From Candidatus Omnitrophota bacterium (lineage in GTDB: Bacteria > Omnitrophota > Gorgyraeia > Gygaellales > Profunditerraquicolaceae): 61,250 bases of DNA. Below the pieces are notes generated by a model. The model worked only from the letters and a program-made list of their open reading frames with translations. It was not told the origin of the DNA and did no database searches. Below are positions 2,388-60,587 of this stretch, in pieces; within the stretch, counting starts at the first letter, position 1, and each line of letters opens with the position of its first letter. A program made the translations under genes and the position numbers. The DNA is taken from contig VGKG01000005.1 of NCBI GenBank assembly GCA_016867115.1, forward strand, positions 1 to 61,250, in the 5' to 3' direction.

Positions 2388-2596
2388 CACCAAAATTTTG
2401 CTTGTCGCAAAATTTTGATGTATGCACTACGCTCGCTAAGCCCCTTGTCGGGGCTTTTAACGCTCGCTTTAGTGCCACCAAATTTTTCCTTGTCGGAAAT
2501 TTTGATGTATGCACTACGCTCGCTAAGCCCCTTGTCGGGGCTTTTAACGCTCGCTTTAGTGCCACCAAATTTTTCCTTGTCGGAAAAATTTGGTGG
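2388..2596. repeat. Tandem 87-88 bp repeat immediately 3' of tRNA-Ala: two full units plus a partial third that overlaps the tRNA CCA end.
   Basis: Units at 2388-2475 and 2476-2562 are nearly identical, and a partial unit runs 2563-2596. Each unit holds hairpins with different stems but the same TTGTC loop: 2392-2416, 2438-2456, 2480-2503. The last copy forms a 15-bp stem, CCACCAAATTTTTCC/GGAAAAATTTGGTGG. Confidence 0.9.
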
Positions 2597-2665
2597 AGCT
2601 GGGGGGATTTGAACCCCCGACCCCCTCGTTGCGAACGAGATGCTCTCCCACTGAGCTACAGCCCC
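2591..2665 (-). tRNA. tRNA-Ala (anticodon CGC), CCA encoded
   Basis: The reverse complement folds by hand into a cloverleaf: GGGGCTG acceptor with the G3:U70 Ala identity pair, TTCGCAA anticodon loop (CGC), GGGGG-TTCAAAT-CCCCC T arm, and a terminal ACCA. Confidence 0.93.
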
Positions 2666-35547: not shown

Positions 35548-35593
35548 CTTTCACCTCTGGTATAATCCTCAGGTATGCAAATAAATTATACCT

Positions 35594-35672
35594 GATTACA
35601 CAGATTTCAAAACAGATTACACAGATTAAAGTTTCTAATCTGTGTAATCTAAGCGCTTTAATCTATGTAATC
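35594..35672. repeat. GATTACACAGATT nested palindromic element (two direct plus two inverted arms) upstream of argC
   Basis: Arms lie at 35594-35606, 35615-35627, 35637-35649 (inverted) and 35660-35672 (inverted, 1 mismatch). The inner stem is 14 bp and perfect. A near-identical element lies at 60513-60587. Confidence 0.85.
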
Positions 35673-51407: not shown

Positions 51408-52397
51408 TTATTTCGGCTTGATCGCTTCGAGGATTTTTTCGTTGAAGGAGCGTTCGACTTCTTCTTTGGCGACACGGATAGCGTTCTTGATGGCTTTGAT
51501 GTTTGAGCGGCCGTGGCCGATGATCACGACTCCGTTTACCCCCAAAAGCGGCGCTCCGCCGTATTCGGAATAATCCAGCTCCCGCTTAAAACGCATGAAG
51601 CTTGACCTTAACATCAGGAGCCCGATCTTACTCATGGGATTGCTTAACAGGTGCTTCTTGAGGAATGCCTGCATGGTCTCAACCACCGACTCCGTCACCT
51701 TAAGTGCAACGTTACCCACAAAGCCGTCGCAGACGATGATATCGCTCTTTCCGGAGAAGAGGTCCTTTCCCTCCACATTGCCGATGAAATTAAGGCCGCT
51801 CTTTTCCAGGAGTTCGCGCGCCTCCTTAATCACCTCGGTACCCTTGCTCTCTTCTTCTCCGATATTCAGGATCCCGACTTTGGGGTCGGGCCTGTTGAGG
51901 ATGTAGCGGAAATAGGCGTCCGCCATGATGGCGTACTGCAGTAAATGCGTGGGCTTAATGTCGATATTGGCGCCCACGTCGATGATCAGGGAGATGTCCT
52001 TTAAAGTGGGGGTAATGATGGCGATCCCCGGCCGCTCGATCCCGGGAAGAAGCCCCAGCCACAGGGTCGCAGCGCAGACTACCGCGCCGGTATTGCCGGC
52101 GCTGAAGAACGCATCGGCCTTTCCTTCCTTGACCAGGTTCAACCCTACGACTATAGAAGAGTTCCTTTTACGCCTGACGCTGGTGGCGGCGGATTCGTCC
52201 ATCTGGATCACGACGGGGGCGTGGTGCACGGTGATATTGCTGCCGTTGTATCTGGCTTTCTTTAAAAGCGGGGTGATCCTGGCTTCGTCTCCTACCAGGA
52301 TCACTTCGGCATTATATTCGTTTACTGCCGCGACTGTCCCCTCGATAACTACCTCGGGCGCATGATCCCCGCCCATCGCATCAACGACTATCTTCAT
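51408..52397 (-). CDS. plsX: Phosphate acyltransferase
   Basis: The start is MKIVVDAMGGDHAPE. I prefer the ATG at 52397 (ATGA overlap with the rpmF stop) over the track start at 52499. Confidence 0.92.
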   Translation of the reverse strand: MKIVVDAMGGDHAPEVVIEGTVAAVNEYNAEVILVGDEARITPLLKKARYNGSNITVHHAPVVIQMDESAATSVRRKRNSSIVVGLNLVKEGKADAFFSAGNTGAVVCAATLWLGLLPGIERPGIAIITPTLKDISLIIDVGANIDIKPTHLLQYAIMADAYFRYILNRPDPKVGILNIGEEESKGTEVIKEARELLEKSGLNFIGNVEGKDLFSGKSDIIVCDGFVGNVALKVTESVVETMQAFLKKHLLSNPMSKIGLLMLRSSFMRFKRELDYSEYGGAPLLGVNGVVIIGHGRSNIKAIKNAIRVAKEEVERSFNEKILEAIKPK

Positions 52398-52594
52398 CTC
52401 TTCTTCTTCTTTTCTTTGACTTCGATCTCGACGACTTTCCTGCCGTTGTAATAGCCGCAGACCATGCAGGCGCGGTGAGGCAATTTCGGCTGCTTGCACT
52501 GGGGGCAGGAAGAAAGATTCGTCGTCGCCACTTTCCAGTGTGTGCGGCGCCTTCGGCCGCGCGCTTTAGAATGTCTTTTTTTCGGTAGAGCCAC
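52394..52594 (-). CDS. rpmF: 50S ribosomal protein L32
   Basis: Has MALPKKRHSKARGRRRRTHWK and a CPQC...CMVC zinc ribbon. Confidence 0.93.
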   Translation of the reverse strand: MALPKKRHSKARGRRRRTHWKVATTNLSSCPQCKQPKLPHRACMVCGYYNGRKVVEIEVKEKKKKR

Positions 52595-52610
52595 AGCGAA
52601 CTCCTTTCAC

Positions 52611-53018
52611 TTATTTACAATCGCACTTTCCTTCGTTCAGGTTCCTGCCGCATTTCGGGCATAGCCCCTGACAATCCGCCTTGCACAGAGGTTTTACCGG
52701 ATAATCCAGGATCGCCTCTTCCCTGATCTCGGGATCCAGATTCACTAACGGGTTCTGGTTATCCGCCGGAAGATCCAGGTCAAACTCTTTATTAAACTTT
52801 ATCTGGACGGCCTCAAGGCACCGGCTGCAGGTAGCCTTAAGCAGGGCGGCCATATTCAGATGCAGATGGACGGCATTGGTGATCTTGGTCGCCTCTACAG
52901 TCACCTTAAGCGGGGTGGTAAACTTGACACAATCCGTGTCCAGGTCCAGGCTCTCCGGCGGAAAATCCTCGGCGAGAATCAGCCCTTCCTCCGGTATCTG
53001 GTTGATATCTATTTTCAT
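52611..53018 (-). CDS. yceD: YceD/DUF177 family protein
   Basis: It sits in the conserved position upstream of rpmF, with the C-terminal CKADCQGLCPKCGRNLNEGKCDC. Confidence 0.85.
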   Translation of the reverse strand: MKIDINQIPEEGLILAEDFPPESLDLDTDCVKFTTPLKVTVEATKITNAVHLHLNMAALLKATCSRCLEAVQIKFNKEFDLDLPADNQNPLVNLDPEIREEAILDYPVKPLCKADCQGLCPKCGRNLNEGKCDCK

Positions 53019-53506
53019 AAAGTCTGTTTATGCAGCTTTATTTTAAGCGCTTCTTCCACAAAATCAGGGACAAAACTGGACAGATCCGCGCCGAGCGTTG
53101 CCGCCTCCTTTAAAAGTTTCGAAGAGAGGTAGCTGTAGGATTCCTGCGGCATCAGAAAGATCGTCTCGATATCGGGTGCGAGCTTGCGGTTCGTCAGGGC
53201 CATCTGAAACTCATACTCAAAATCAGAGAGCATGCGCAGGCCCCGGATCAGGACCTTGGCCTTGTGTTTACGCGCATAATCCACTACCAGCCCGTCAAAA
53301 GACTCAATCTCCACCCCTTTTAAGCCGGCAGTAGCCTTCCTGATCATGGCTACCCTTTCCTCAAGGCTGAAGAGCGGGCCCTTATGCGGATTGCGCGCCA
53401 CGGCTACGATCACCTCGGAGAATACCTCCTGCGCCCGCTTGATCAGATCGATGTGGCCGTAGGTGACCGGGTCAAAGGTACCCGGATAAATGGCTACCTG
53501 ACACAT
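53015..53506 (-). CDS. coaD: Phosphopantetheine adenylyltransferase
   Basis: AIYPGTFDPVTYGHIDLIKRA is the diagnostic motif. Confidence 0.94.
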   Translation of the reverse strand: MCQVAIYPGTFDPVTYGHIDLIKRAQEVFSEVIVAVARNPHKGPLFSLEERVAMIRKATAGLKGVEIESFDGLVVDYARKHKAKVLIRGLRMLSDFEYEFQMALTNRKLAPDIETIFLMPQESYSYLSSKLLKEAATLGADLSSFVPDFVEEALKIKLHKQTL

Positions 53507-53508
53507 AC

Positions 53509-54231
53509 TTACGCTTCTTTCCTATAAATGGAGATTACAGTATCGCCGTACCTGGCTTGCTTGACGAGGCTAAGCTTTCCGGCTTGCCGGGGGAGCTCAT
53601 CGCGCTTAAAATGCTGCACTACCACCAGACCAATGGGCGCTAATATATCATAAGCCCCCAGCATTTGCAAGGCTTTTTTTGACGCAGAAGGCGGCACACC
53701 AACCCATCCTTTAGGGTTGGGTGTTGACGCAGAAGGCGGCACACCAACCCATCCTTTAGGGTTGGGTGTTGACGCAGAAGGCGGCACACCAACCTTTCTG
53801 TCCATAGAGGACGCACTTGGCAATCCTTTATGCCAAGGTGCCTTAAGGTTGGGCGTTGCCGTACCCTTCTTATAGTAAGGAGGGTCTAAGAAGATGATTT
53901 CAAAGCTTTTCTTCTCTTTATGCAGGAGCCGGATCGCGCTTTCAGAATCCAGGGGAATAAGGCTGCAGTCGGTTATTCCCAGGGACTCTATATTCCTGCG
54001 GATCGCCTGCAGGGATTCCCGTTCAGGCTCAACCAGGGTAAGGCTCGCAGCTCCCCTGGAGAGCGCCTCAAAGCCCACTGCCCCCGAACCGGCAAAAAGC
54101 TCCAGGAAAGAGAGCCCCTCGATGTCTCCCAGGATGTCAAAGACCGCCTTCCTTACCTTATTCTGGGTCGGCCGGATGCCTTTGGGCATCTTAAGGAGCC
54201 TGCCTTTGAATATACCGGTAGTTATTCTCAT
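53509..54231 (-). CDS. rsmD: 16S rRNA (guanine966-N2)-methyltransferase RsmD with an internal repeat insertion of about 60 aa
   Basis: Has RPTQNKVRKAVFDIL, LELFAGSGAVGFEALSRGA and IFLDPPY. At 240 aa it is longer than the usual 180-190 aa. Confidence 0.88.
   Translation of the reverse strand: MRITTGIFKGRLLKMPKGIRPTQNKVRKAVFDILGDIEGLSFLELFAGSGAVGFEALSRGAASLTLVEPERESLQAIRRNIESLGITDCSLIPLDSESAIRLLHKEKKSFEIIFLDPPYYKKGTATPNLKAPWHKGLPSASSMDRKVGVPPSASTPNPKGWVGVPPSASTPNPKGWVGVPPSASKKALQMLGAYDILAPIGLVVVQHFKRDELPRQAGKLSLVKQARYGDTVISIYRKEA
53681..53866. repeat. In-frame array of hairpin units inside rsmD: two perfect 45-bp units, a partial third and diverged copies
   Basis: Units run 53681-53725 and 53726-53770, with a partial unit 53771-53794. 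A diverged hairpin lies at 53813-53841 and a half copy at 53841-53866. All hairpins share the loop ATCCTTTA and a bulged G. Confidence 0.9.
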
Positions 54232-54237
54232 CAGAGA

Positions 54238-55734
54238 TTATTTCAGCGATCTTAAAGCAAGGTCTGCCGCGTCTTTTCCGGAGACAAGGGCCCCGTGCAT
54301 GCCGCAGCCTGGCCTGGTCCAGGCGCCGGAAAGGAAGAGCCCCCTGACCCGGGTGCTTTGCGCCAGGCGGTTGATGCTCGCCTGGTTCACCGTCTGGGCA
54401 AAGCCGTAAATCGCGCCTTCCGGCAGAGTGCCGAAACGCTGCATAGTCTTAGGGGTGGCGACTTCCATGACCTCGATGGTTTCGCTTAAACCCGGCAGGT
54501 ATTTTTCCAGCCGCCTGATCAGCCGGCCAGCCACCGCAACTTTTTTCTCTGCGTATTCTCTCCCGTTTAAATGCGCCCAGTTGGCGAAATTATCCAGGGA
54601 CATGATCAAGAGGCTCCCCTTGCCCGGCGGGGTGAGGCCGGGGTCAAGCTGCGCATGGTCCACGGCAGAAAAGGCGCTATGTTCATAATCGCCCCGCATA
54701 AAGCGGCCAAAACCCTCGTCATGGTCGTAGCCGGTGCAGACCGAAAGCATGAAATGCTCCATACCCAGGCTCTTTGCCGGGACATTTAAGCCCAGGTATA
54801 TCTGAAGCGCAGAGACTGATTTTTCCATCGCTGCCAGACGCCGGGCATAATCTTTCTTCAGTTCGCCGTCATCGAGCAGAGTGCATAACGTATCTATGGC
54901 ATTGGCATTGGAAATCACTGTGCGGGCCCTGAACTCTTCCCCTTTAGCGGTGACCACCCCGCAGGCGCCGGACCTTGCGGTGACGATCTTTTTTACTTCG
55001 GTATTAAACCTCACCTCGCCCCCCAGCTCTTCTATTCTTTGCGTCATGGCCCTGAATATCCGGATAAAGCCTCCCCTGCAATAAACAGTAGGCTCGAAAT
55101 AATAACCCCTGAAGACGACCAGAAAATAAAATGCCGAAAGGCGGCTGGGAGGCGAGCCGATGAAACGCCAGATCTCGGTAAGGATAGCCGTCAGTTTCTT
55201 ATCGCTGATGTATTTCTTAAGGAAACTTTCGGCAGTAAGGCAGGAGGCCCTGATGATCCCCGGATAAAGGATGGGGGCAAGCGCCAGGTTAAGCCATTCA
55301 GGCAGCTTCGAATCCGCATAGCGGTCAAACTGACGGTAGAGATCTTTAAGGCCGCAAAAGAGCCGGCTCAGCTCTTCTGCCTGATGCGGGAAGCTCTTCT
55401 TTAAATAATCCTTGTAGTGTCCGGGATCAAAGTCTGCGACAAAGTCGTGTTCGGGAAACCTGATGCGGCAGAAATCTTTCAGGGGGATAAACTCAAGGCC
55501 ATTATCCAGGCCGTATTCCTGCAGGAACCGGCGCACCTCACCGCCCTCTGCCAGGGCATCCACGCAGTGCAGGGCGGATTCGAAGGTAAAACCCCGGCGG
55601 GTAAAGGTTGTGCCCAGCCCTCCGGGAAGAGGCTGTTTTTCAAGGACCAGGACCTTCCTGCCTGCAGCTGCCAGCTTGACTGCCGGGACCAGTCCGCCGG
55701 TGCCGGCGCCGATGATTATGCAATCATAAAGCAT
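54238..55734 (-). CDS. Phytoene desaturase (CrtI)-family NAD(P)/FAD-dependent oxidoreductase
   Basis: The dinucleotide fold is YDCIIIGAGTGGLVPAVKLAAAGRKVLVLEKQPLPGG. At 498 aa it has the C-terminal GAWTRPGCGMHG. Confidence 0.8.
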   Translation of the reverse strand: MLYDCIIIGAGTGGLVPAVKLAAAGRKVLVLEKQPLPGGLGTTFTRRGFTFESALHCVDALAEGGEVRRFLQEYGLDNGLEFIPLKDFCRIRFPEHDFVADFDPGHYKDYLKKSFPHQAEELSRLFCGLKDLYRQFDRYADSKLPEWLNLALAPILYPGIIRASCLTAESFLKKYISDKKLTAILTEIWRFIGSPPSRLSAFYFLVVFRGYYFEPTVYCRGGFIRIFRAMTQRIEELGGEVRFNTEVKKIVTARSGACGVVTAKGEEFRARTVISNANAIDTLCTLLDDGELKKDYARRLAAMEKSVSALQIYLGLNVPAKSLGMEHFMLSVCTGYDHDEGFGRFMRGDYEHSAFSAVDHAQLDPGLTPPGKGSLLIMSLDNFANWAHLNGREYAEKKVAVAGRLIRRLEKYLPGLSETIEVMEVATPKTMQRFGTLPEGAIYGFAQTVNQASINRLAQSTRVRGLFLSGAWTRPGCGMHGALVSGKDAADLALRSLK

Positions 55735-60488: not shown

Positions 60489-60512
60489 CTTCGCTTAAAA
60501 TTAAATATAAAG

Positions 60513-60587
60513 GATTACACAGATTTATTTAGATTACACAGATTGAAGCTTTAATCTGTGTAATCTACCCTTATAATCTGCGTAATC
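60513..60587. repeat. Second GATTACACAGATT nested palindromic element, upstream of the KS-partner gene
   Basis: Arms lie at 60513-60525, 60532-60544, 60553-60565 (inverted) and 60575-60587 (inverted, 1 mismatch). The architecture matches 35594-35672. Confidence 0.85.

Follow-up and report, generated by a model that had tools for sequence, protein, structure and literature searches.

A self-nesting array of bulged hairpin units in rsmD of an Omnitrophota bacterium, probably an in-frame landing of a dispersed palindromic element

The repetitive extragenic palindromic (REP), BIME and REPIN elements, with their RAYT transposases, are short imperfect palindromes present in many copies, often at gene ends near terminators. 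IS200/IS605-type ends and their miniature derivatives follow another logic, in which a hairpin with an extrahelical base is recognised and insertion takes place at a short specific target without duplication. The Omnitrophota form a large phylum, of which nearly all knowledge comes from metagenomes. Rickettsia palindromic elements (RPEs) are dispersed palindromic repeats that lie between genes and also in frame within unrelated housekeeping genes, where the host open reading frame (ORF) stays intact and a peptide is gained (PMC10969869). [quoted passage not shown] Here we analyse a stretch of 61,250 nt (the window) from a Candidatus Omnitrophota bacterium (GenBank assembly GCA_016867115.1, contig VGKG01000005.1, positions 1 to 61,250 of the forward strand), in which rsmD, the gene for a 16S rRNA methyltransferase, contains a 177-nt in-frame array of hairpin units. 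Our best reading is a new REP/RPE-like family of palindromic elements: the array would be a tolerated in-frame set of copies of a dispersed element targeted to A-tracts, a reading to which we give a rough probability of 0.62.

Using a covariance model of the 45-nt unit (R1) and Tandem Repeats Finder (TRF), we resolved the inserted block into the following parts, given here in sense order with positions of the window:

53680-53856, minus strand: the whole inserted block, 177 nt or 59 codons, four units of which one is nested (delimited against empty-site orthologues, DPPY-x4-[AS]-KK, and with AlphaFold)
53842-53856, minus strand: 5' part of outer unit 1 (TPNLK), the 5' arm of its hairpin 1
53797-53841, minus strand: nested unit (APWHKGLPSASSMDR) in the hairpin 1 loop of unit 1 (R1 14.9 bits, E 0.05, match 53799-53844)
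53813-53841, minus strand: hairpin 1 of the nested unit, covarying, with loop and bulge kept
53770-53796, minus strand: 3' part of outer unit 1 (KVGVPPSAS), the 3' arm of hairpin 1 plus hairpin 2
53725-53769, minus strand: unit 2, identical to unit 3 (R1 70.7 bits, E 3e-16; TRF 100% identity)
53741-53769, minus strand: hairpin 1 of unit 2, an exact pattern match
53680-53724, minus strand: unit 3, adjoining the A-run (R1 59.1 bits, E 2.7e-13; exact pattern)
53696-53724, minus strand: hairpin 1 of unit 3, an exact pattern match
53680-53696, minus strand: hairpin 2 of unit 3, with one C.T mismatch

TRF reports a period of 45 nt over 53679-53794 (2.6 copies, 100% identity) that encodes GVPPSASTPNPKGWV, which bears out the in-frame 45-bp units proposed by a first-pass annotation made from the letters alone. 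The two identical units represent a recent local tandem duplication. The canonical unit of 15 codons reads, in sense, ACA CCC AAC CCT AAA GGA TGG GTT GGT GTG CCG CCT TCT GCG GCA, and on direct reading it is open in at least four of the six frames. Its hairpin 1 consists of ACACC-c-AACCC, the loop TAAAGGAT and GGGTT-GGTGT, with a bulged C that appears as a bulged G on the plus strand. In plus-strand letters this hairpin, ACACCAACCC-ATCCTTTA-GGGTTGgGTGT, occurs exactly at 53696-53724 and 53741-53769, with 0 occurrences expected by chance. The first-pass annotation had equated the unit with this bulged hairpin; the hairpin stands, and each unit has in addition a second, smaller one, which reads GCCGC-CTTCT-GCGGC in relatives and has GCGTC in the window copies, giving the C.T mismatch. 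The same annotation had noticed a diverged copy with six of ten stem pairs changed in a compensatory way. The changes are confirmed (GCACTTGGCA-ATCCTTTA-TGCCAAGgTGC at 53813-53841, complementary at stem positions 1, 5, 6, 7, 8 and 10), yet the copy proves to be a complete unit nested in the loop of a third, outer unit, with a small hairpin 2 of its own (GTCC-TCTAT-GGAC) and a peptide, KAPWHKGLPSAS, that is also present in L033 and P0018. Around this nested unit, 53770-53796 pairs with 53842-53856 in both the RNA and the DNA folds. On either strand the region folds better than shuffled sequences, with z -4.5 for RNA and z -6.05 for DNA. The 8-mer ATCCTTTA occurs 10 times in the window against 2.6 expected, and only three of these occurrences are hairpin loops; the other seven were considered as elements and rejected, as none of them forms a hairpin loop.

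The stems covary, in keeping with the earlier claim that the nucleic-acid structure is maintained. Among 15 distinct rsmD units, 97.8% of stem cells are paired and both partners have changed in 11 of the 15 pairs; the observed covariation was not reached by any of 500 shuffles, and slid registers pair at 30-45%. Across 130 distinct dispersed copies, 95.3% of cells are paired and 13 of the 15 pairs carry double changes, in an alignment that was fitted to the model and whose loci were chosen with a pattern including hairpin 2, so that its conservation is inflated; sliding the partners brings pairing down to 28-48%. Hairpin 1 has a 10-bp stem with the bulge, and hairpin 2 a GC-rich stem of 5-6 bp. 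The outer stem (ACACC/GGTGT), the bulged base and hairpin 2 are conserved in sequence, whereas hairpin 1 is free to vary in its inner five pairs (counts at one inner-stem pair: GC 56, CG 34, AU 26, UA 7). Loop 1 follows YAWNGGAW and is most often TATCGGAT; loop 2 (YTTCT) is TTTCT or CTTCT. The conservation of the bulge and outer stem suggests that they are recognised by a protein.

Across the rsmD units, the encoded residues swap radically with pairing kept (N..V, N..I, E..F, K..F, KR..SF, RP..GA, R..A, GA..GA, G..A, GL..KA). Because the amino acids change freely where the stem varies, the peptide is not what is conserved. Stem mismatches comprise 43 G.U and 34 A.C, and the copies stand in both orientations to their flanking genes (both genes opposite for 25 copies, both the same for 16). 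A strand-specific function as RNA should leave more G.U than A.C and a bias in orientation; the data fit complementarity kept on the DNA, whether a folded single strand is recognised, one arm templates the other, or both.

The element is dispersed within the phylum. Scanning 185,579 species genomes with the 21-mer pattern GGTGTGCNGCYTTCTGCNGCA returned more than 120 stretches, itself a lower bound, and at least about 100 of the stretches among the matches listed are from Omnitrophota; the matches listed from outside the phylum are close in number to a rough random-sequence estimate of chance (about 35). One genome has at least 12 copies of the pattern and the complete Velamenicoccus archaeovorus chromosome at least three. 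A proper hairpin 1 lies upstream in 97 of the 125 individual matches listed, and R1 identifies 136 copies in 697 kb of loci taken from the matches listed. Most dispersed copies are intergenic, often at gene ends; in the fetched loci, R1 finds the unit outside rsmD upstream of fabG and acpP and, in L042, as a three-unit intergenic array. Nesting recurs, since six copies carry 21-53 nt in loop 1. In-frame copies are present in yceD (L119 and L112, an in-frame duplication, on the opposite strand), in uvrA (L204, SPNPIGGVGVLPSAA, in the same reading frame) and, antisense, in a GT2 glycosyltransferase gene (L241). The element thus behaves as RPEs do, with multi-copy dispersal within a lineage and in-frame copies in unrelated genes whose ORF is preserved. 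The first-pass annotation had raised templating by a palindromic mobile element and a parallel with the Rickettsia elements, and both gain support from this distribution. It had named as fatal an element with no other copies and orthologues without hairpin potential; we find copies in relatives and hairpin potential in orthologous inserts. Its suggested search for further loop hairpins thus succeeded in relatives and found none elsewhere in the 61-kb window. With the exact 22-mer of the window hairpin, the same 185,579 genomes gave a chance match in Prevotella only: the window's own genome, or its exact hairpin variant, is absent from these representatives. Only one candidate came back when proteins were searched with a synthetic repeat peptide, probably an effect of how low-complexity sequence is handled.

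Several further observations concern these loci. The in-frame hairpin units in conserved genes lie at about 278-323 in L204, 8191-8239 in L119, 3037-3085 in L112 and 5011-5166 in L241, and more in-gene units at L108 5495-5531, L138 4815-4861 and L129 11167-11199. The yceD gene (DUF177) is hit by two different repeat families at two places, and several copies form the C-terminal tail of an ORF (L197, L239, L248). A second recurrent landing site in the gene cluster of rsmD is the spacer that immediately precedes the acpP ribosome-binding site, occupied by three hairpin repeat families in different genomes (L031 8856-8893, L039 7435-7480, L002 5941-5990, L257 1018-1066). In Candidatus Velamenicoccus archaeovorus LiM (L195 2953-3552), a 600-nt spacer consists of hairpin modules nearly throughout, with two copies of a composite block of ~250 nt; the context of this block recurs in at least five genomes (L171, L172, L188, L229, L238, L239, L263). 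For the composite block, neither an Rfam match nor a conserved neighbouring gene was found, and Rfam 15 gave only sub-threshold hits in the repeat-rich Velamenicoccus spacer (e.g. Bacillaceae-1, 23.9 bits against a gathering score of 35).

The gene that hosts the array and its surroundings in the window are as follows:

53509-54231, minus strand: rsmD, 16S rRNA m2G966 methyltransferase, 240 aa, an intact ORF with the insert (ORF list, Pfam, PDB, AlphaFold)
53875-53886, minus strand: DPPY codons (motif IV), with the insert downstream in the gene (direct reading, orthologue alignment)
53674-53680, minus strand: A7 tract (A8 in most relatives), KK codons; its 5' edge is the exact end of the repeat block
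53642-53670, minus strand: promoter-like block within rsmD, TTGCAA, 17 nt, TG-n-TATATT (promoter scan and conservation)
53015-53506, minus strand: coaD, phosphopantetheine adenylyltransferase, directly downstream of rsmD (ORF list)

The 240-aa product belongs to the RsmD family: it matches Pfam PF03602 (E 9.6e-45) and the RsmD-family chains 3p9n and 2fpo in the PDB, and the Cons_hypoth95 fold, the S-adenosylmethionine (SAM)-binding motifs and DPPY, which is invariant in the orthologue alignment, are all present. Its homologues are Omnitrophota proteins of 179-251 aa. Insert-free orthologues measure 179-185 aa, so that the window protein exceeds them by about 60 aa, close to the 55-60 extra residues first estimated. 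The first-pass placement of the array between the SAM-binding half and DPPY was wrong. The protein reads DPPY-YKKGTA-insert-KKALQ, which puts the array after motif IV, directly downstream of DPPY and before the next helix, and the orthologue alignment delimits the insertion at one codon boundary there. Using AlphaFold2 with the orthologue alignment, we obtained a confident RsmD core, with a predicted local distance difference test (pLDDT) score of 85-97 for the flanking blocks and of about 34, without secondary structure, for residues 120-179. The insert is on these grounds predicted to be a disordered loop between strand 4/DPPY and the next helix, and the model, together with the interruption of the PDB alignments at the insert, points to a structurally tolerated surface position. 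The gene cluster runs rsmD-coaD-yceD-rpmF-plsX-fabHDG-acpP, and Pfam CTP_transf_like is found for coaD in L362, an identical locus.

We then compared the site across rsmD loci fetched from species genomes and metagenomes (141 distinct loci; 140 for the A-run and promoter counts). The empty, basal site is DPPY followed by five residues and KK. It is empty in 64 of the 141 loci and filled in 77, with 5-84 extra residues at the same codon boundary. Every locus is in frame and stop-free, including four missed by the first pattern, and none is disrupted; these intact ORFs argue that rsmD is functional and that insertions are filtered by selection on the reading frame. The inserts fall into several unrelated sequence families, 17 loci carrying that of the window (…ATPNxKGxVGVPPSAA), and copies of other families from the site are likewise present in yceD and upstream of acpP. 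In a neighbour-joining tree of RsmD, which is weak, window-family inserts are scattered over at least eight positions among empty sites and other families, and P0006, the closest relative of the window (77% identity), carries a different insert family. This scatter and the different family in P0006 argue for repeated gain, loss and replacement at the site rather than one ancient event. That every insert at the site is a hairpin was considered and rejected, because z < -2 is reached by no more than 33 of the 75 inserts that are 18 aa or longer. GCA stands on both sides of filled sites, but the element itself also ends in GCA; around intergenic copies, no duplication is consistently seen.

The nucleotides directly after the insertion point are conserved. 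With or without an insert, an A-run of exactly 8 is found in 125 of the 140 distinct loci, and the A-run with TTGCAW-N17-TAYAYT in 128; the consensus 3' of the insertion point is gCA AAAAAAA cC TTGCAA N17 TG-n-TATATT. Third codon positions of this block have a conservation of 0.83, compared with 0.54 in a control, the strongly conserved protein motif FLELFAGSG. The block lies ~130 nt upstream of coaD and is presumably a promoter of sigma-70 type, internal to rsmD and provided with an A-tract, that serves coaD. A-runs also adjoin the element elsewhere: at least six A's occur in the next 8 nt of 33 of the 97 dispersed copies listed, one third and not all, against a background of 1.64%. Beside dispersed copies, the A-run is usually followed by a GC hairpin, which is a terminator on the other strand, and the element accordingly sits just past the T-run of a terminator read from that strand. 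Within rsmD, an intrinsic terminator was rejected because the sense-strand hairpins are followed by A's, on the other strand T's precede them, and a promoter/terminator scan finds none. Programmed frameshifting at A_AAA_AAA was also considered; the heptamer is in the -1 phase, and nothing supports it.

The proposed course of events can be put as follows. The array would be made up of copies of a repeat element of Omnitrophota that is small, non-coding and defined by its structure, and that behaves like a REP, MITE or RPE, being dispersed, tandem, self-nesting in its loop and mostly located between genes. Such an element would prefer the 5' edge of A-tracts, and because the A7-8 tract of rsmD may mimic this preferred target, the window family and several other hairpin families would have landed repeatedly at exactly that nucleotide. 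The site probably encodes a disordered surface loop after motif IV, and insertions there would be translated as a tolerated, presumably neutral extension of the loop. Only in-frame, stop-free insertions would be kept, a filter that a loop site and a unit of 15 codons open in most frames would make easy to pass.

A number of observations weigh against this account. No target-site duplication was seen, and we infer movement from the distribution of copies alone. No transposase is linked to the element, the RAYT-like Y1 family being the one examined, and R1 has no match within 1.5 kb of 80 RAYT-like genes. R1 also finds no copy in the 61-kb window beyond the rsmD array. Fewer than half of the longer rsmD inserts (33 of 75) fold convincingly, the A-run association covers a third of the copies, and the conservation measured on the 130 dispersed copies is inflated by the way in which they were chosen. 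Recurrence at the rsmD site, moreover, could also reflect selection for structure there.

This last point leads to the main rival, which we regard as unlikely, namely that selection maintains the hairpins for a role in cis, played either by the RNA or by a DNA cruciform, just upstream of the coaD promoter within rsmD. They would then act in promoter insulation, supercoiling, or mRNA processing and stability within the rsmD-coaD-yceD-rpmF-fab operon, and the dispersed copies would do likewise. The insert does always adjoin the nucleotide-conserved promoter-like block, the positions just upstream of fabG and acpP are repeatedly occupied by dispersed copies and other families, and the stems covary strongly around conserved loops. 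Set against this are the 64 of the 141 distinct loci that lack an insert, and the origin of the inserts in unrelated families, half of the inserts being without significant folding. Copies face both ways relative to flanking genes, G.U shows no excess over A.C, contrary to what an RNA function predicts, and the hairpin followed by A's is not a terminator, none being found by the scan. Rfam offers no matching family either, a scan of 52300-55000 of the window with Rfam 15 having returned nothing relevant.

Less probable still is a purely local origin, by slippage and quasi-palindrome template switching at the A-tract, in which the arms are templated by each other and nothing moves. The 100% identity of the two tandem units, the slippage-prone A7-8 run and the symmetric preservation of Watson-Crick pairing on both strands all suit this explanation, and local slippage probably does explain the tandem expansion itself. 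As a full explanation it is contradicted by near-identical 45-nt units, including exact 21-mers, at at least about 100 unrelated sites in many genomes, since slippage cannot generate dispersed copies.

We consider it very improbable that the insert is an adaptive Pro/Gly-rich loop beside DPPY that alters the contact of RsmD with the 30S subunit, with the palindromy of the DNA incidental. Such a role would agree with an insert that is always in frame, widespread in the phylum and adjacent to motif IV, but residues encoded by the stems change radically with pairing kept, different families place unrelated peptides at the same site, and the insert is disordered in the AlphaFold model. The same DNA, furthermore, is mostly intergenic elsewhere, and in other genes its reading frame or its strand differs. 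An assembly artefact or an rsmD pseudogene, the latter being a caveat of the first-pass annotation, is scarcely credible: tandem repeats can mis-assemble in metagenomes, but an identical 226-aa product is recorded on four contigs, one from JGI sample 3300020109, which excludes an accident of assembly, and the ORF is intact, with its catalytic motifs present and its core modelled confidently. Integron attC sites, which share a bulged hairpin and a GTTGGGT box, were rejected on size, context and the lack of an integrase.

Returning to the dispersed element targeted to A-tracts, a more specific proposal is that its unit is the substrate of a structure-specific insertion system, which would recognise the conserved outer stem, bulge and loops on folded single-stranded DNA and place the unit, without duplication, at the 5' edge of an A-tract, corresponding to the 3' side of a terminator's T-tract. 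This is a tentative idea, to which we lend less belief than doubt. A link to RAYT transposases was rejected, because the Y1 family has its own repeats and, within 1.5 kb of the 80 genes examined, no 45-nt hairpins. With 1858 proteins at E <= 1e-10, the RAYT-like family is abundant among Omnitrophota. One RAYT-like Y1 transposase (225 aa, PF01797; L096 4330-5170) has three copies of AGAATAGGGGACGCTTC before it and an inverted CGTCCCCTATT after it, repeats of its own and not the 45-nt unit; by its looks it belongs to a REP/RAYT-type system of the phylum that is separate from the 45-nt element. Viral contigs, scanned on a trial basis with the Y1 transposase family, yielded nothing. Eight loci share a longer context around the element, and no neighbouring gene is conserved among them.

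Compared with the described systems, the element resembles RPEs in behaviour and not by homology, as dispersed palindromes that insert in frame at a tolerated site. It differs in its unit of 45 nt, against about 100-150 nt for RPEs, and in its phylum; its unit comprises two defined hairpins, including a bulge, and occurs both in tandem and inside its own loop. It is associated with A-runs, and elements of several families hit one codon-exact site, in rsmD, again and again. It therefore falls outside the RPE families proper, set apart by unit length and host and not by a comparison of sequences. With REP/RAYT systems it shares short multicopy palindromes mainly outside genes and a structure conserved beyond sequence, and RAYT-like Y1 genes are common in Omnitrophota. 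However, none of the 80 RAYT-like genes is flanked by the element, no conserved REP-type 5' tetranucleotide was identified in it, and it consists of two unlike hairpins rather than inverted REP doublets and occurs inside ORFs; it is not a demonstrated REP/RAYT system. Like BOX, RUP, SPRITE and MITEs, it is small, nesting, hairpin-forming and terminator-associated, but its unit is much shorter, no terminal inverted repeats with target-site duplication are evident, and no parent insertion sequence was found for it. Its bulged hairpin and its proposed insertion beside a short target without duplication recall IS200/IS605, whose single-stranded DNA logic is consistent with the symmetric Watson-Crick conservation of the stems; it differs in its two unlike hairpins and in the homopolymer run as proposed target, and no TnpA or TnpB partner was found. 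Literature searches found no description of Omnitrophota repeat elements, and a 2026 preprint on complete Omnitrophota genomes (bioRxiv 10.64898/2026.06.07.730766) makes no mention of palindromes, hairpins or MITEs. What is distinctive here is a tiny two-hairpin unit, self-nesting in the loop, the association with A-tracts, and a multi-family, codon-exact hotspot in a universal gene.

Other repeats were observed in the window. Two unlike tandem arrays (2388-2586 and 2689-2868) flank a tRNA-Ala(CGC) gene (2591-2665, minus strand), one of 87-nt units at 96% identity and the other of 68-nt units at 86%. The 87-nt unit has two hairpins with a common TTGTC loop and different stems, and no copy of these repeats was found in any fetched locus. 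The motif GATTACACAGATT occurs twice each at 35579-35628 and 60498-60545, 24.9 kb apart and in direct orientation; these repeats could be operator or attachment-type sites bounding a segment.

With this family there is a second and independent case of DNA, selfish or structural, that lives within housekeeping proteins, alongside the RPEs of Rickettsia. The rsmD site is a natural experiment, one codon-exact position that is empty in 64 loci and filled in 77, at which target rules, filtering by frame and turnover are measurable. Independently of the repeats, the promoter-like block in rsmD provides a testable instance of regulatory constraint superimposed on coding constraint. In practical terms, the repeats inflate and fragment protein families (RsmD ranges over 179-251 aa) and create spurious ORFs in spacers, and they are likely break points in short-read assemblies. 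If structure-specific insertion holds true, the element would be among the smallest mobile units, a micro-transposon targeting terminators and A-tracts, and the A8 tract of rsmD would be a phylum-wide trap that has recorded dozens of independent insertions at single-nucleotide resolution.

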